Below, one piece after another: positions 3,775 through 31,939 of a stretch of DNA of 64,000 nucleotides. The stretch is taken from positions 1,249-65,248 of IMG/VR virus record IMGVR_UViG_3300036770_006429. One strand, 5' to 3'. The notes beneath the pieces were generated by a model. It was not told the DNA's origin, did no database searches, and saw nothing but the letters and a program-made list of their open reading frames with translations. The position numbers were made by a program, and so were the translations under genes. The stretch's first letter is position 1, and the number at the start of each line of letters is the position of its first letter. The DNA is from a virus. Lineage: Duplodnaviria > Caudoviricetes.

Positions 3775-4311
3775 TTATATTTTTATCGAACAACGGATAA
3801 TTTTTGTGTATTTATCTTCTACACCATCCTCCATTTTTAATTGAAATATTTTGTTTAATTCATCCATAGGCATTTCTTGAATAATTTTTTTTGCAACCTC
3901 CCGATATAAATTATCAACACCAACAGCCGAAATATCAAATGTACTAAGCTTCAGATAACTATCGTAAGTGGTTAATTTTTGCGATGGAACTTCCCAGATA
4001 CATTTACCAAAAAACGGCTCATATCCGTTATTGATAACAGATAATGCAACTTGTAAAAAATCACCTTCAATTACTACTTCATAACAGCTCTTATAATCAG
4101 AGGACCATCGAATTTCATCTATTCTTATGCACGGACGATTTCTCGTGCTTACAAAAGAATAAGGCTTATCTACAAAATATTGCATAAGAATCTTTGATGC
4201 ACTAACTCCGCTTCCCTCGCCAAGTTCAGCAGTAATAAACCTTACTCCATCTGGAATAGTTTCTAAAGCAATTGGGCATTTATAGCCCCAATTGTTTTCA
4301 AAATATGTCAT
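3775..4311 (-). CDS. Hypothetical protein (likely start MTYFENNW)
   Basis: ATG at 4311 overlaps the end of the upstream Zn-finger ORF. Confidence 0.6.
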   Translation of the reverse strand: MTYFENNWGYKCPIALETIPDGVRFITAELGEGSGVSASKILMQYFVDKPYSFVSTRNRPCIRIDEIRWSSDYKSCYEVVIEGDFLQVALSVINNGYEPFFGKCIWEVPSQKLTTYDSYLKLSTFDISAVGVDNLYREVAKKIIQEMPMDELNKIFQLKMEDGVEDKYTKIIRCSIKI

Positions 4312-4531
4312 TGTGTTTGTTTTTGCGCGTTTTTGTATAGCCATATATCTTCTGCAATTCGGGGGTAATCCTTTTTGGCTCGCATTCACCGCAGAATTTT
4401 AAAGTGTGTGCAACTCCTTTATATAAAAACTGCCGAAAACCCAACCATCTTCAGTGGTTGGGTAGTTCACATTGAACCAACCATTCGCTTGTAGCTTTTT
4501 TGCCACAATCATCGCATTTTCCCCGCATCAT
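4298..4531 (-). pseudogene. 61-aa CxxC..CxxC zinc-finger gene interrupted by a 48-bp IS scar
   Basis: Removing 4423-4470 restores MMRGKCDDCGKKATSEWLVQ|YKGVAHTLKFCGECEPKR...; the insert brings an in-frame TGA. Confidence 0.8.
4423..4470 (+). mobile_element. 48-bp collapsed IS200/IS605 element (single hairpin)
   Basis: TTTAT|ATAAAAACTGCCGAAAA-CCCAACCATCTTCAGTGGTTGGG-TAGTTCAC; 46/48 identical to the left/right-end fusion of element 30234..31583. Confidence 0.9.
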
Positions 4532-4532
4532 A

Positions 4533-4751
4533 TCAATCAATTATTAATTTACCTATTAAGTTCCTATGCGTGTTCATGAAAGAATCAGTTGCAGCATCGC
4601 GCCTCATAAGCATGAAGTCAGAGTAAATTTCCATGAAATCAACATACAACATATCAATATTGCCATTTTCATTCCAATGAACCCCTTCAACATTTTTAAC
4701 TCCAAAATCTTCTCCGTGAATATTAACAATATGAATTTTTGGCCTTTTCAT
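4533..4751 (-). CDS. Hypothetical protein
   Basis: 72-aa ORF with ATGA overlap to the upstream gene. Confidence 0.6.
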   Translation of the reverse strand: MKRPKIHIVNIHGEDFGVKNVEGVHWNENGNIDMLYVDFMEIYSDFMLMRRDAATDSFMNTHRNLIGKLIID

Positions 4752-5098
4752 TTTTTTTGTTTTTTAATTCGCCAAACACATTTTCCAAAACTAACATCTG
4801 AAATATCCTTAACATTTGGATGTAATTCCGATATGAATTTACTAAATTCAACATTATAGTCATTTATGACATTAACTACTAATTTTGTATCGTCTGAAAA
4901 CCATTGCAGGTCTTTTAAAAGACTATTACCAGCATATGGTTTCTTCTTATGGGCCATAATGAATATACTATGAATAATTCCGTTTAGTTTAACACATTCT
5001 GCCGTAATATATTTAAATTTAAAATTTATTTTAGAATCACTTAAAATTTCATCAACATTAAGCGAAAAATTGTAATCAAATTCATTTTTGAGTTCCAT
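4748..5098 (-). CDS. Hypothetical protein, distant W/RP-family paralog
   Basis: KNEFDY start and FGKCVWR end resemble ORFs 6060 and 6756. Confidence 0.6.
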   Translation of the reverse strand: MELKNEFDYNFSLNVDEILSDSKINFKFKYITAECVKLNGIIHSIFIMAHKKKPYAGNSLLKDLQWFSDDTKLVVNVINDYNVEFSKFISELHPNVKDISDVSFGKCVWRIKKQKK

Positions 5099-5153
5099 AT
5101 TAATCTAATTAAAAACGGTTATCTAATCAGGTTGGGTGTGGCTAACAAAAAAG

Positions 5154-5241
5154 CGGAAGAGGAGGGATTCGAACCCCCGGTACCTTTTACAGTACAACAG
5201 TTTTCAAGACTGCCGCAATAAACCAGCTCTGCCACTCTTCC
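5154..5241 (-). tRNA. tRNA-Ser (anticodon UGA)
   Basis: GGAAGAG/CTCTTCC acceptor, GCAGT-CT-TGA-AA-ACTGT anticodon arm, long variable arm, GGTTCGAATCC T-loop, G discriminator, no encoded CCA. Confidence 0.92.
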
Positions 5242-5340
5242 GGATGTTTACAAAAATTACATATACAAGTCTTTTTTTTAATGATTAATAATAAGGCTGT
5301 TTTCCCCCGATCACATTTAACACCACTTACACGCCCCCTT

Positions 5341-5365
5341 GTGGAGACGCAGGATTCGAACCTTA
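5341..5365 (-). pseudogene. tRNA 3'-half remnant
   Basis: AGGTTCGAATCCTGCGTCTCCAC T-arm and 3' acceptor strand with no matching 5' half. Confidence 0.4.
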
Positions 5366-5387
5366 TGGTGATGCACCTTTTATGTTT

Positions 5388-5576
5388 GTAGCCAGAGCTG
5401 GATTCGAACCAGCAAACTCCACTTAACTTCGGTTGAGTTAACAAACGCTCACTCCATAAGCGGACCCAGCCATTTAAGGCGAGTAGCTTCTTCCGTTAAC
5501 AAATCCTCTTACTTCTGCGGAGGCATAAATGCTGACCAGCCTTTGCTGCGCGTCTGCCGTTTTCGCTATCTGGCTA
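5388..5576 (-). ncRNA. tRNA-like RNA (~189 nt) with a very large insert replacing the anticodon arm
   Basis: TAGCCAGA/TCTGGCTA acceptor, GCG-AAAACGGCAGA-CGC D-arm, GCTGG-TTCGAAT-CCAGC T-arm, ~135 nt of small hairpins between. Confidence 0.7.
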
Positions 5577-5594
5577 TATTTTTTTAATGTTATT

Positions 5595-5903
5595 TTAGAT
5601 TTTGAGTTTAATCATTTTACAAATCATATCAAATTCATTCATAGTATTACATTCACCATTAAACTTAACAGAATGATTTGGCCCGTCTTGATTAAATCCA
5701 TTATCTGTTGTTGTAAGTATTACTGTGTATGTGTTGAGTGAATAATTTTTACCGTCCGTTTCATATTCAGTTTTTTTTGTTTCTAAATATAAAAAGGCAC
5801 CTTGTCCATCGTCTTTCCATATATCACCTTTTTCAAAGTTCATTACGTTGCCAAACTCATAACTAAATCTCCAACCCCTTTGTTCAAAATCTTCTTTTTT
5901 CAT
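5595..5903 (-). CDS. Hypothetical phage protein
   Basis: 102-aa ORF ending in FNGECNTMNEFDMICKMIKL, a common Bacteroidetes-phage pattern. Confidence 0.65.
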   Translation of the reverse strand: MKKEDFEQRGWRFSYEFGNVMNFEKGDIWKDDGQGAFLYLETKKTEYETDGKNYSLNTYTVILTTTDNGFNQDGPNHSVKFNGECNTMNEFDMICKMIKLKI

Positions 5904-5940
5904 ATGTTCTTCTTTTACATCGTAAAATATACATTATTTT

Positions 5941-6044
5941 AGGGGTCGGCAGGGGACTCGAACCCCTAACAGTGTTATACATTCCTGTTTCCCCTATGAT
6001 TGGGAGCGCCTATGCTTTATAAGGCCATTTCGCCAACCGACCCC
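5941..6044 (-). ncRNA. Non-canonical tRNA-like RNA with enlarged D-loop and ambiguous anticodon (CAU or UCA)
   Basis: GGGGTCGG/CCGACCCC acceptor, AGGGG-TTCGAGT-CCCCT T-arm, TCCC-AATCATAG-GGGA arm, AACAG...CTGTT variable arm. Confidence 0.7.
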
Positions 6045-6059
6045 CAAAAATAACTTATA

Positions 6060-6389
6060 TTATGGCCTTTGCCATATAGCTTTCCCAAATTCAATTTTTC
6101 GACCCCCAGTGTGCTTCAGGACTCGCAATCTAATCTCTTCTTCTTGTTCCGGTTCAAATGCAATGTGATGTTCGTAATTTTTATCTGGGTCATCGCTTAA
6201 CCACTTGATTTCATTGTACGGTTCTGCGACAAAAGGAAATGGCATTCCTTTGAATGCGCTCACAATATATATTAAACCCATTTCTGCGCCCCGAATATAA
6301 TGGTTGCGCTTATTTAAAGCCACCCACTTGTATTCTTTTGGAATTAAATCCCAGCTCAAAGGCATTTCGTAATCAAAGTGGTTTTTCAT
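6060..6389 (-). CDS. W/RP-family hypothetical protein
   Basis: MKNHFDYEMPLSWDLIPKEYKWVALN...GKAIWQRP; close paralog of 6756..7379. Confidence 0.75.
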   Translation of the reverse strand: MKNHFDYEMPLSWDLIPKEYKWVALNKRNHYIRGAEMGLIYIVSAFKGMPFPFVAEPYNEIKWLSDDPDKNYEHHIAFEPEQEEEIRLRVLKHTGGRKIEFGKAIWQRP

Positions 6390-6400
6390 GGCTTTGTGTT

Positions 6401-6610
6401 TTATTTTAAAGTTTTAATATAATCTTTCACCAAATCACCGCAGTAAAAAGTGCTAACCAACAAATCATCTCCATTTTCGATAATGGAATATTTTTGGCGA
6501 TTTTGTTTTGCGAATTCGACGAAATCAGATTTAACAAATCTTTTTTCATCTTTACGCATGTCGGAAACTTGCTCATGTCGCTCACCTACCCAATTTACCG
6601 AATGTTGCAT
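6401..6610 (-). CDS. Hypothetical protein
   Basis: 69-aa ORF behind a TAnnTTTG promoter. Confidence 0.6.
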   Translation of the reverse strand: MQHSVNWVGERHEQVSDMRKDEKRFVKSDFVEFAKQNRQKYSIIENGDDLLVSTFYCGDLVKDYIKTLK

Positions 6611-6646
6611 ACTTTAATGTTTTATGGTTTCGTAAAAATAACACCA

Positions 6647-6654
6647 CAAAGATA
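6647..6654 (-). promoter_or_regulatory. Bacteroidetes sigma70 -7 box (TATCTTTG)
   Basis: CAAAGATA on the + strand, 37 bp upstream of the ATG at 6610. Confidence 0.7.
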
Positions 6655-6708
6655 CGGCGTTTTTTTGGATAGTGCAATTTTTTTTGAAAAATTTTATGCT
6701 TTTTTTAT

Positions 6709-6755
6709 ATAAAAGAGCGTAAACCCCAACCATCTTCAGTGGTTGGGTAGTTCAC
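6709..6755 (+). mobile_element. 47-bp collapsed IS200/IS605 element
   Basis: TTTAT|ATAAAAGAGCGTAAAC-CCCAACCATCTTCAGTGGTTGGG-TAGTTCAC; intergenic, abutting the stop codon at 6756. Confidence 0.88.
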
Positions 6756-7379
6756 TTATGAAATTTCTGAATTGCGCTTGTTTTCATCCAAATCCTTATC
6801 TAAAGGAAAATTTTTACTTTCAACTTTTGGTAGGTTTTCAAATTCTTCATTTGTGTAAAGTTTGTAACCATCTGATTTTAACAAGTCAAATCTTTTAGCA
6901 GCATATTTTAGTGCGTTATTGTAGAAAGCCATTGTTGAGTTTGGCTTATTCAGAGTTGGTTTAAATATATCGGACATAGTGTCTATGCTATCTAACAATC
7001 GCCACAATTGTTCCGCAATCTCCCTCATAGAGGGGCTATCGCCATTATATGGCCTTTGCCACAAAGATTTTCCAATATCAATTTGATTTGCATCCAAATG
7101 TTGAAGAATATGCTTTCTAATTCTCACAGAATCAGAAAAATCAAATCTAATTTCATATTCATTTGACTCTTGTTCATCACTGACCCAAATTATCTCATCA
7201 TCAAACAATGGATATGGCATCTTTTTAAAGCCATTTAAAACATAACTCACTCTAATTTCCCCTATCATATATTCTTTTCCTTCTGGAAAATCGTAGGTAA
7301 TATTCAAAGCAACCCACTTATATTCTTCTGGAATATCATCCCAACTTATTGGCAACTCGTAATTGAAATCGTTTTTCAT
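6756..7379 (-). CDS. W/RP-family protein with extra C-terminal domain
   Basis: MKNDFNYELPISWDDIPEEYKWVALN...GKSLWQRP followed by an AEQLWRLLDSIDTMSD domain. Confidence 0.75.
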   Translation of the reverse strand: MKNDFNYELPISWDDIPEEYKWVALNITYDFPEGKEYMIGEIRVSYVLNGFKKMPYPLFDDEIIWVSDEQESNEYEIRFDFSDSVRIRKHILQHLDANQIDIGKSLWQRPYNGDSPSMREIAEQLWRLLDSIDTMSDIFKPTLNKPNSTMAFYNNALKYAAKRFDLLKSDGYKLYTNEEFENLPKVESKNFPLDKDLDENKRNSEIS

Positions 7380-7389
7380 TGTTTTATTT

Positions 7390-7797
7390 TTATGGGCGTT
7401 TCCAGATACATTTTCTAACATCAATTACCGTGTCTTGGGTATGGCGGATTGTGTGGTTTTCGAGAATCTCATATTTGTAATCAACAAATTCATGTCTGTG
7501 ATTTTCGTTGTTTTTGATATCCCAAATGAAACCAACATTTTTTGTGAATAATGAATCCGGCATCTCCTTTGTATTGTTGACGACAAGCATCACTTTTGTA
7601 ACCACCTTATCCGTTTCGTTATCATATTCCTGATATTCTTCTCGGTGCATGGTGATGAATTTGTATCTCTTTGGAATTTCATTCCAAATCAATGGACAAA
7701 TGTAACCATGTTCATTTCTAACTTCTTTTGTTGGTTCTTGTTCGCAACCAAACAAAAGTAGAGCAATTGTACAAAAAGTTAATGTTGTTGTTCTCAT
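7390..7797 (-). CDS. Predicted lipoprotein of the W/RP family
   Basis: LLLFG|C lipobox; WNEIPKRYKF...CIWKRP. Confidence 0.7.
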   Translation of the reverse strand: MRTTTLTFCTIALLLFGCEQEPTKEVRNEHGYICPLIWNEIPKRYKFITMHREEYQEYDNETDKVVTKVMLVVNNTKEMPDSLFTKNVGFIWDIKNNENHRHEFVDYKYEILENHTIRHTQDTVIDVRKCIWKRP

Positions 7798-8000: not shown

Positions 8001-8014
8001 ATTAGTATTTTTTG

Positions 8015-8097
8015 ATGCCGAGAGTGGAATCGAACCACCTACCTTTGTCTCTTGCAAATAAACGCTCACCAACGCGCTACCAATGCGCCACTCGGCT
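8015..8097 (-). ncRNA. tRNA-like RNA with distorted anticodon arm
   Basis: GCCGAG/CTCGGC acceptor, GCGC-ATTGGTA-GCGC D-arm, GGTGG-TTCGATT-CCACT T-arm; no clean 5-bp/7-nt anticodon arm. Confidence 0.65.
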
Positions 8098-29755: not shown

Positions 29756-29998
29756 TCATATGATAATTGCACAAGTTAAATCACAATCGGATTTAAAAAA
29801 ATATTTGGTGCATTTTTCATGACCAGATATATGTTCAAAGATGAATTTAAAATCTTTTGAATTTCCGCTTTCACTCAATATCGAAAAATTTCTTTTTGAA
29901 AAAGTAATATCTCCACTAACTTTAATCAAATCCGAAGCCGATGCTATTAATCTATTTTTTTCTCTGTGATATTGGAAAAGATTTCCCGGATATATCAT
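29756..29998 (-). CDS. Hypothetical protein
   Basis: 80-aa ORF with ATGA overlap. Confidence 0.6.
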   Translation of the reverse strand: MIYPGNLFQYHREKNRLIASASDLIKVSGDITFSKRNFSILSESGNSKDFKFIFEHISGHEKCTKYFFKSDCDLTCAIII

Positions 29999-30233
29999 TT
30001 AATTCTGAAATTTTTTCTGACTTCCTTCCAGCAATCTTTATATAGAGTTAACTCATTATTAATTGCCTCAGCCTCATAAGGATTATCTCTCCATGGTAAA
30101 TTGCGATATTTGTTATATTTTGTTTTTATCGGTTGCAGTGTGTGGGTATATTCGTGAATGATTGTTTGAACGAAATCTCTTATGTATTCATTATTTTTAA
30201 CGTAAATCGTCATTTTGTTTTTATAAGGCTCAT

Positions 30234-31583
30234 GTGAACTACCCAACCACTGAAGATGGTTGGGCTTCCAGATTATAAGTATCTGGAACTTTGGAAGTTT
30301 CATCGGTTGTGCCAACTGGTGTTGGTCTTATTTCACCTCCACTTCTGTAATCGGATGTCCCGTCCGATATTATTTTACATCCTTCTTTGAGGATATTTAT
30401 GCTTGCGTTCAAATCTCTATCCAAATTTGTATTGCAGGATGGACAAGTCCATTCCCTCATATCCAATTTTAGATTTTGATTTATATATCCACAACAATTG
30501 CATGTTTTGGAACTCGGAAAAAATCTATCAATCTTGACAATTTCTTTATCATTCCATTCTGCTTTGTAAGTCAAAAGTTCTATGAACTTTGACCAACTAA
30601 CATCGGCAATGTGTTTTGAAAGTTTATGATTTTTCATTAATCCCTTAACGTTCAAATCTTCCAATATGATTTTATCATATTTTCTGATTAACTCTGTGGA
30701 TATTTTGTGCAAATTATCTACACGAGAATTGGTTATTTTCTTGTGTAGCTTTGCAACTTTCAATCTTTGTTTTTCGTATCTTTTTGAGCCTTTCTTCTTT
30801 CTGCTCAGATGTTTCTGAGCATTTTTGAGTAAAGTCTGATATGTTCTTGTGTATCTATTGTTTTTATACCTATATCCGTCACTGGTTATAACAAAATCTT
30901 TTATGCCCAAATCGATTCCAACAATTTTCCCTGTTTTCGGGAGTTTTTTATGTTCCGTTTCAACAAGAATTGAGACAAAATATTCATTTGTCGGGGTTTT
31001 TGAAATTGTGCATTGCTTAATGGTTCCAGTAAATTTTCTGCTTAGGATTAAATCAATTGGTTCTTTAAACTTAGGTATTACTAATTTTCCATTCTCTAAT
31101 TTCACTGACTGTGGAACAGAAAATGAACTCCTGTTTCGTTTTGATTTGAACTTTGGAAATCCTTTTTTAAATTTAAAAAAGTTTTTATATGCGGTTTCCA
31201 AATTTTTCAACGCAGTTTGTAGTGATTGCGAATTGATTTCGTTTAACCAATAATAGTTTTCTTGTTTTTTTAATTCCGTTAATGCTTTTGCATTATCATA
31301 ATAGTTAATAGTATTTTTGTTATCTTCATATTCCTTTTTTCTTTCATTAAGAAAAAAGTTATAAACAAATCTAATGGAACCCAGATGCTTATTCAAAAGC
31401 ACCTTTTGTTCATCATTAGGTTTAAGTTTATATTTATATGCTTTTAACATTTATCAGAAATTCATTATATATGATAAATACATTTTAATTTATTAAAAGT
31501 TCATATTTATTAAAAATTTAACAATTATTTAACAACCTTTCATCCCAACCACTGAAGATGGTTGGGTTTTCGGTTGTTTTTAT
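30234..31583 (-). mobile_element. IS200/IS605-family (IS1341-type, tnpB-only) element, 1350 bp
   Basis: Inserted 3' of TTTAT (31588-31584); ends in TTCAC; identical 23-bp hairpins at 31544-31566 and 30242-30264; no target duplication; no tnpA. Confidence 0.93.
30239..31450 (-). CDS. tnpB: RNA-guided endonuclease TnpB
   Basis: KAYKYKLKP HTH; GIDLG, ILEDL and DRDLNA RuvC triad intact; CNCC...CPSC zinc finger. Confidence 0.96.
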   Translation of the reverse strand: MLKAYKYKLKPNDEQKVLLNKHLGSIRFVYNFFLNERKKEYEDNKNTINYYDNAKALTELKKQENYYWLNEINSQSLQTALKNLETAYKNFFKFKKGFPKFKSKRNRSSFSVPQSVKLENGKLVIPKFKEPIDLILSRKFTGTIKQCTISKTPTNEYFVSILVETEHKKLPKTGKIVGIDLGIKDFVITSDGYRYKNNRYTRTYQTLLKNAQKHLSRKKKGSKRYEKQRLKVAKLHKKITNSRVDNLHKISTELIRKYDKIILEDLNVKGLMKNHKLSKHIADVSWSKFIELLTYKAEWNDKEIVKIDRFFPSSKTCNCCGYINQNLKLDMREWTCPSCNTNLDRDLNASINILKEGCKIISDGTSDYRSGGEIRPTPVGTTDETSKVPDTYNLEAQPSSVVG

Positions 31584-31747
31584 ATAAACCCATGAAAGCA
31601 GAAATATCGTTTGTTATGCACAAGCTCTGCCTTATCTTGTGCCTTTTGTTGACGCCCAAATTATTCTCAAGCCAAAACAACGTATGTTTTGCAATATCCA
31701 AAAGCTCGTCAAGAGTTAAAGTTTCGGTTTTTCGAATCAATGAATAC

Positions 31748-31939
31748 TTATGGCGCATGGTTTTTTCTTTTATATTCAACAAATGGTGCAACCAACAAAA
31801 TCAATAAAGTTATTACAAAAGGAATCGGCCTTGATATCACTATCAAAGCCCTGTCTTTAACAAAAAATACATCCGCAACAGCAAATGCAAATATCAAACA
31901 AATAATCAAATATGATACATATATAAATATTCTGAACAT
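31748..31939 (-). CDS. Small two-TM membrane protein
   Basis: Hydrophobic ORF; likely start MFRIF. Confidence 0.5.
   Translation of the reverse strand: MFRIFIYVSYLIICLIFAFAVADVFFVKDRALIVISRPIPFVITLLILLVAPFVEYKRKNHAP

Follow-up and report, generated by a model that had tools for sequence, protein, structure and literature searches.

The DNA analysed here, called the window throughout, comprises 64,000 nucleotides (positions 1,249 to 65,248) of the 65,248-bp IMG/VR virus record IMGVR_UViG_3300036770_006429 (Duplodnaviria; Caudoviricetes). The record is estimated to be 21% complete, and the window, most of that record, is therefore a fragment of a large (giant) phage. It carries two short elements of 48 and 47 bp, here called mini 1 and mini 2, and one full-length insertion sequence of the IS200/IS605 family (IS1341-type), of which tnpB is the sole gene (Table 1). 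All three lie directly 3' of a TTTAT, the putative insertion target and transposon-associated motif (TAM), and all three end in an identical 8-nt right tail. All three also share a 23-nt hairpin, of which each short element has a single copy and the 1350-bp full element one copy at either end. As judged by the sequence comparisons described below, the minis are core-deleted, terminal-only remnants of IS200/IS605 TnpB elements, and these comparisons support deletion between the end hairpins as the mechanism.

The short elements and the full-length element

The four exact copies of the hairpin lie at 4440-4462 (+), 6725-6747 (+), 30242-30264 (-) and 31544-31566 (-). Allowing up to three mismatches leaves the count at four, where 0.00 are expected from 100 shuffles, and a script search of the window with up to six mismatches returned no additional copy. 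Folded as single-stranded DNA, the hairpin is far more stable than its shuffled counterparts (z -3.7 to -5.3 across both minis and the right end; -4.0 for mini 1). Each mini has the anatomy of a terminal-only palindrome-associated transposable element (PATE): a left tip, one near-terminal palindrome and a right tip, about 50 bp in all, with no open reading frame (ORF). The two end hairpins of the full element are identical at 23/23 positions, and the product computed for its collapse (17+23+8 = 48 nt) equals mini 1 at 46/48 positions. A sequence-only reading of this DNA had drawn attention to the hairpin copies, the TTTAT, the shared tail and the 46/48 match, and in every detail that could be checked these observations are correct.

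In the full element the subterminal hairpins are in direct orientation, and there are no terminal inverted repeats. Its TnpB is matched by Pfam PF12323, PF01385 and PF07282, all above cut-off. The Y1 transposase domain (PF01797) has no match in the 65-kb record, itself rated 21% complete, and a related element with the same ends (L006, described below) does encode a Y1_Tnp protein; the window copy is therefore a non-autonomous IS1341-type member. Excision of 30234-31583 in silico restores exactly a 137-aa HExxH ORF that the element splits. The empty site also occurs naturally, in run X8 of another study: a 51-kb contig there has a single letter separating 30231 from 31583, which is exactly the unoccupied sequence, without any duplicated base, and contains one synonymous change (TAT to TAC) relative to the occupied allele. 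A 1265-nt contig of run X5 spans the left junction of the occupied form. The full element has thus inserted recently, is polymorphic in nature and produced no target duplication. The single change in X8, at window position 30232, affects position 2 of the predicted TnpB target (the second base past the TAM); either chance polymorphism or resistance of the allele to cutting could account for it. Collapse of the full element at this locus would place a 48-nt, in-frame and stop-free insert (16 aa) in the HExxH gene, whose open frame could thereby return.

Mini 1 likewise sits in a gene. Excision of 4423-4470 in silico regains a 61-aa CxxC...CxxC ORF, the frame of which stops within mini 1 when the insert is present, and a 61-aa homologue (P0001, from a cluster of 7 members) runs intact across the insertion point and shares 63% identity with the restored ORF over the C-terminal 40 aa. 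The element boundaries are thus confirmed by the X8 empty site, by the restored HExxH ORF and by the restored CxxC...CxxC ORF with its unbroken homologue. A 271-kb metagenome contig (L011) has the mini 1 insert at this locus without a single difference, the flanks being 97.8% identical across 1341 nt, and a contig of run X8, from a separate study, contains its right junction as well. The short elements are thus not assembly artefacts, and mini 1, unchanged at one locus in three sources despite flanks that diverge by about 2%, is stable. Mini 2 is intergenic, its right end abutting the stop codon of a minus-strand ORF at 6756..7424. Synteny with the 271-kb contig stops about 20 bp before mini 2 (window 6680-6708), where a different gene follows in that contig, and the stub therefore lies at a mosaic junction.

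One might suppose that such hairpins are functional sites in their own right, terminators or protein-binding sites that merely resemble transposon ends, an idea that would suit both their stable fold (z about -4) and the position of mini 2 between genes. Against this, the whole 23-base hairpin recurs in full elements, as do the tail and the left tips, mini 1 interrupts and stops a conserved ORF, and no T-run follows the hairpin; we regard independent origin as very improbable. A terminator role in particular was rejected, given the missing T-run 3' of the hairpin and the ORF broken by mini 1.

Table 1. Coordinates of the TnpB-related features in the window.
Feature	Position	Strand	Remarks
TTTAT target/TAM	4418..4422	+	directly left of mini 1
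Mini 1, 48-bp terminal-only stub	4423..4470	+	17-nt left tip, 23-nt hairpin, 8-nt right tail
CxxC...CxxC (zinc-ribbon-like) small ORF	4298..4531	-	broken by mini 1; 61 aa once the insert is removed
TTTAT target/TAM	6704..6708	+	directly left of mini 2
Mini 2, 47-bp terminal-only stub	6709..6755	+	16-nt left tip (L009/L008 type), 23-nt hairpin, 8-nt right tail
Full IS200/IS605 (IS1341-type) TnpB-only element, 1350 bp	30234..31583	-	after TTTAT (31584-31588 on the plus strand, read as complement)
tnpB, 403 aa (HTH_OrfB_IS605, OrfB_IS605, Cas12f1-like TNB)	30239..31450	-	last codons and stop inside the right-end hairpin and tail
Left-end hairpin	31544..31566	-	preceded by guide AAAA; enclosed by a 7-bp outer stem covarying with the L006 element
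Right-end hairpin	30242..30264	-	preceded by guide GAAG; followed by an 8-nt tail ending TCAC
HExxH gene, C-terminal half	29995..30233	-	gene split by the full element
HExxH gene, N-terminal half	31584..31758	-	gene split by the full element

Relatives carrying the same hairpin

The exact 23-mer has no match in IMG/VR and none in 185,579 species genomes; it is present at 8 metagenome loci. IMG/VR searches with the 116-aa and 716-aa neighbour proteins yielded no relatives. GenBank phages offered nothing close, with the tRNA-Ser and weak tnpB matches as the only hits, and a 55-nt mini query there produced chance-level matches only (E 0.3).

The 271-kb contig comes from a related phage. It carries an autonomous element of 1754 bp (L006+L010) encoding a 136-aa Y1_Tnp TnpA (E 3e-34) and a 398-aa TnpB, with end hairpins identical at 23/23 positions and a left tip equal to that of mini 1 at 17/17. 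At a separate locus (L008) it also holds a second stub of the mini 2 type (type 2), which differs from mini 2 at 2/47 positions. The mini 2 type of left tip, 16 nt long, is found on a full element of another contig (L009), where it agrees with mini 2 at 13/16 positions and the end hairpins are alike at 22/23. Stub length follows left-tip length, a 17-nt tip giving 48 bp and a 16-nt tip giving 47. Because each mini tip matches a different full element and the lengths follow the tips, the two stubs derive from two different parents, and the deletion is recurrent. The window's three loci show three left-tip variants, each matching a different full-length lineage, and the earlier count of at least three invasions in 64 kb is accordingly a fair reading.

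The TnpB proteins of the three elements with identical hairpins share only 52-60% identity, while the closest relative of the window TnpB (82%, L013) has different hairpins; ends and tnpB are thus exchanged as modules, the ends probably following the available TnpA that moves them and not tnpB. In contrast to the identical ends of the window element, only 3 of 27 IMG/VR loci of relatives have the right-end hairpin repeated upstream when up to 4 mismatches are allowed, each time with 4 mismatches. The outer stem around the left-end hairpin (window 31520-31580, minus strand, 7 bp) has a counterpart of 4-5 bp at L006:9915-9960, and its two sides change together; the L009 left end has no such stem, and the stubs retain only its 5' half.

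Deletion between the end hairpins

The route from full element to stub can be followed in a Colwellia genome (G003), where the paired hairpin positions 4 and 20 distinguish the two ends. Left-end hairpins there have A4/T20 (5/5) and right-end hairpins C4/G20 (9/9), and all 3/3 stub-like copies have A4/G20, a chimeric hairpin with a mismatched stem. The stubs' left tips recur on full copies within G003, on two different ones in all. Such chimeras are the signature of a crossover inside the hairpin, between left and right ends, on more than one occasion. TnpA cuts outside the hairpin and so cannot make a chimeric one, and TnpA as the maker of the stubs was rejected on that ground. That the stubs arose by deletion between end hairpins is, in our judgement, highly probable.

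The events proposed are as follows. A full element would insert 3' of TTTAT by single-strand "peel and paste" transposition with TnpA supplied in trans, and an autonomous copy with the same ends is indeed carried by the related 271-kb phage contig. The approximately 1.3-1.7 kb between the direct-repeat end hairpins would be lost later, through replication slippage or short-homology recombination, and what remained (left tip, one hairpin and right tip) would have been formed in place, much as a solo long terminal repeat (LTR) is. Solo LTRs result when recombination of the direct terminal repeats removes the body of an element and leaves an immobile repeat, and they can outnumber full copies. 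The analogy lies in the loss of the body between direct terminal repeats with one repeat left behind; the difference is that the repeat here measures 23 bp and not hundreds of bp, so that slippage or short-homology annealing is likelier than classical homologous recombination.

A more elaborate birth can be imagined during TnpB homing, in which TnpB would cut the empty TAM and target in a co-infecting genome and the repair copy would switch template between the hairpins, leaving a stub that can no longer be cut. TnpB does require a TAM next to its target, the TAM being the TnpA target, and breaks made by TnpB are described as being repaired from the occupied copy (PMC10055086). The full-element locus exists in full and empty form among natural phage populations, and a stub puts 47-48 bp between the TAM and the old target. 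The product is, however, the same as that of plain slippage, and sequence cannot tell the two routes apart; we consider the homing route improbable. Deletion between the hairpins, by whichever route, has one predictable consequence. Once the element has collapsed, it is the right tail and not TTTAT that supplies the five bases ahead of the former right flank, as is likewise the case in the full element. Since TnpB needs a TAM adjoining its target, and the TAM is now separated from it, the stub should be immune to TnpB cutting.

Guide and cut-site pairing

The window's elements share with those of the IS608/ISDra2 type (a Y1 HUH transposase, TnpA, together with the RNA-guided nuclease TnpB) their subterminal hairpins, insertion 3' of a fixed 4-5-nt site without duplication, and a 4-nt guide 5' of each hairpin that pairs with the cut site. 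They differ in that the window's full copy is without tnpA and its end hairpins are identical at 23/23 positions. One guide/cut-site pair of IS608 is GAAT/TCAA, and GAAT likewise stands with a tail ending TCAA in L013, L014 and L017. In the window's full element the left guide AAAA accompanies TTAT and the right guide GAAG accompanies TCAC, and two metagenome right ends have the guide AAAA with a tail ending TTAT. Another IS608 pair is AAAG/TTAC (PMC5027513).

The pairing rule, which the sequence-only reading had carried over from IS608, is valid in the element's own relatives. Among 31 IMG/VR loci with related TnpBs, 23 distinct right ends were parsed (2 loci were unparsed and 1 was without a tail), and in 22/23 of these full right ends guide base 4 is complementary to the last base of the element, whether as G-C, T-A or A-T. 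L007 and L012, from one metagenome, have the same right end (guide AAAA, tail ending TTAT) at two different flanks; there the right cut site equals the left target.

In the minis the rule finds no partner. Neither the AAAA at the guide position of mini 1 nor the AAAC of mini 2 fits the right cut site TCAC. The TnpA of IS608 binds two hairpins. With a sole left guide that misfits TCAC, and with one hairpin where the enzyme binds two, the stubs would be poor or dead substrates for TnpA.

Comparison with known elements

Single hairpins are also familiar from repetitive extragenic palindromic (REP) sequences, which carry a conserved flanking tetranucleotide and are tied to IS200-type Y1 transposases (REP-associated tyrosine transposases, RAYT); single REPs are regarded as remnants of the mobile doublet. 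The likeness is that of single hairpins related to IS200-type Y1 transposases. REPs nonetheless differ in being host-domesticated and in not consisting of a left tip joined to a right tip from a TnpB element.

A far closer precedent is provided by the haloarchaeon Haloquadratum walsbyi, for which Dyall-Smith et al. (2011; PMC3119063) described 52-bp terminal-only PATEs that had arisen when the core was lost by repeat-mediated deletion. By their account, the near-terminal palindromes form a direct repeat of 22 or 19 bp, and both the PATE HqIRS46 and the 1500-bp TnpB element ISHwa23 occur shortened to 52 bp (PMC3119063). These workers report four loci at which one strain has the complete form and the other the core-deleted one, which amounts to deletion in place, and they propose core deletion as a defence against IS605-type elements (PMC3119063). 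There, as here, an IS605/IS1341-type element of about 1.5 kb, or a PATE, is cut down to about 50 bp between its palindromes with no target duplication. The direct repeat measures 19-22 bp there and 23 bp here, and the stubs 52 bp there and 47-48 bp here; the host there is a haloarchaeon, whereas the elements described here belong to a large phage from freshwater/subsurface metagenomes; and four loci were caught in both states there, none here. The novelty implied by the sequence-only reading therefore falls away, since core deletion of IS605-type elements to terminal-only PATEs of about 50 bp was published in 2011 (PMC3119063). The minis are a clear new example of an element kind known since that year, not a new kind. 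A literature search found no paper on such stubs in phages.

A survey of one-hairpin stubs

A strict stub pattern (guide AAAA, a CCC...GGG hairpin with the characteristic loop, and the right tail) matches 31 places in IMG/VR (23 distinct) and 41 in the species genomes (39 distinct), giving 62 distinct further stubs. None of the matches has a same-strand tnpB within 1.5 kb upstream. TTTAT or TTAT stands at the expected distance in 56/60 stubs (counted after a separate de-duplication), and a left target ending in T fits the AAAA guide. The stubs are found in viruses, bacteria and archaea, among them Methanosarcinales, Colwellia and other Alteromonadales, Bacteroidales, Desulfobacteraceae, Cyanobacteria and others. 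The earlier statement that the scars are without GAAG is borne out in that no matching right guide is present in either mini, nor in 57/62 of these other stubs. A single 23-kb IMG/VR contig holds two different one-hairpin stubs (L048 and L053), like the window. In a Methanosarcinaceae genome (G001), three loci (L124, L132 and L144) have the right tail on both sides of the hairpin, in inverted orientation on one and direct on the other, so that the palindrome is extended.

Relic or mobile element

How the stubs arose and whether they have moved since are separate questions. On the second we lean, on sequence grounds, towards formation in place with little or no later mobility. Four lines of evidence support this reading: the misfit of the guide to the right cut site in the stubs, where the left target does fit in 56/60, the fact that different stubs mirror different full copies, the unchanged state of mini 1 in three sources, and the published strain pairs with their deletion in place (PMC3119063).

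Several results weigh against it. Nowhere in the data is one locus represented by a full as well as by a stub allele. The sequence-only reading had suggested looking for empty, full and collapsed alleles of one locus, and the first two were indeed found at the full-element locus (full in the window and X5, empty in X8); no hairpin-to-hairpin stub joint was seen there in the assembled contigs of 4/23 runs, contigs being apt to hide rare variants. Other joints in the run contigs proved to be patches of diverged paralogous elements and not deletions. At the mini 1 locus the stub is present in all three sources, and the sole empty form is the distant homologue with its 63% identity; for mini 2, no empty site was present in the pieces of the 271-kb contig that were compared, synteny ending about 20 bp earlier. 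Decay of the hairpin, a potential sign of a relic, shows no clear difference, with 8/8 paired stems in 30/62 stubs and in 11/16 full right ends. In G001, 30 loci (from 34 matches) were classed by script as 11 stubs, 7 left ends, 5 "right ends" and 7 unclear, although inspection by eye accepts just two of those "right ends" as genuine GAAG ends and shows several of the unclear loci to be degenerate stubs; three G001 stubs have in common a left-tip variant absent from all full copies. Finally, an identical 46-nt stub occurs at unrelated loci in a phage contig (L054) and in a Desulfobacteraceae genome (L115), and in Haloquadratum six strain-specific ISHwa23 insertions all have the 52-bp form, such that the stub may be mobilised (PMC3119063).

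These results bear on an alternative in which the core was deleted once or a few times and the stubs then spread as mobile minimal PATEs through TnpA acting in trans, the minis having arrived as stubs. Both minis do come directly after TTTAT, the target of TnpA, a related phage has a TnpA with matching ends, and the type-2 stub is found at a second, unrelated locus with 2/47 differences. Stubs equal or outnumber full copies in G001, the L054/L115 pair shares its sequence between different organisms, and Dyall-Smith et al. themselves suggest mobilisation on the strength of the six strain-specific insertions (PMC3119063). Other observations speak against it. Among distinct stubs the only guide fits the right cut site in 5/62, as against 22/23 full right ends (a contrast that is partly built in, the search pattern having fixed the guide as AAAA), and a mobile lineage should keep or regain that fit. 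Each stub, moreover, has one hairpin and TnpA binds two. The left tips of the two minis are strongly different, each matching another full element, which argues against one mini lineage, and the Colwellia stubs, with their mismatched chimeric stem, mirror the left tips of two full copies. Many near-identical relics are also typical of solo LTRs, which show that immobile copies of this kind can accumulate, so that copy number alone is no proof of mobility. Spread as mobile stubs thus seems to us the less likely reading. More doubtful is the proposition that stubs of 47-48 nt are still moved by TnpA in trans, one hairpin sufficing and a mismatched right guide being tolerated. Were that so, no smaller transposons would be known, and the broad distribution of the stubs (62 distinct loci from the one strict pattern, and at least 11 in one archaeal genome) would be explained.

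Collapse in situ to immobile products, as first put forward for the minis, therefore stands in part. The 46/48 match and the Colwellia chimeras uphold deletion between the end hairpins; that the two minis formed where they now lie and cannot move is the likelier reading, with indirect support.

Other features of the window

A tRNA-Ser (tga) at 5153-5241 (-) has 91% identity to the tRNA-Ser of the Flavobacterium phages vB_FspM_immuto, a similarity that may be taken as a weak hint of a Bacteroidota host. ARAGORN predicts a tRNA-Ala at 8014-8097 that Rfam does not report. The tRNA-Ser was the sole match of the Rfam search, which returned no named ωRNA family.

Implications

This giant phage documents the full life cycle of a TnpB element: a recent, gene-splitting insertion whose empty site still circulates, an autonomous relative able to supply TnpA, and two old stubs, one of which (mini 1) knocks out a small conserved gene. 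Stubs of this kind are common in viruses, bacteria and archaea and are overlooked by annotation; past IS200/IS605 activity is therefore underestimated when full tnpB genes alone are counted. The contrast in guide fit between stubs and full right ends, together with the chimeric hairpins, bears on a question dating from 2011, namely whether such terminal-only elements are relics or mobile. Stubs that withstood TnpA as well as TnpB would behave like resistance alleles towards the homing drive of TnpB.

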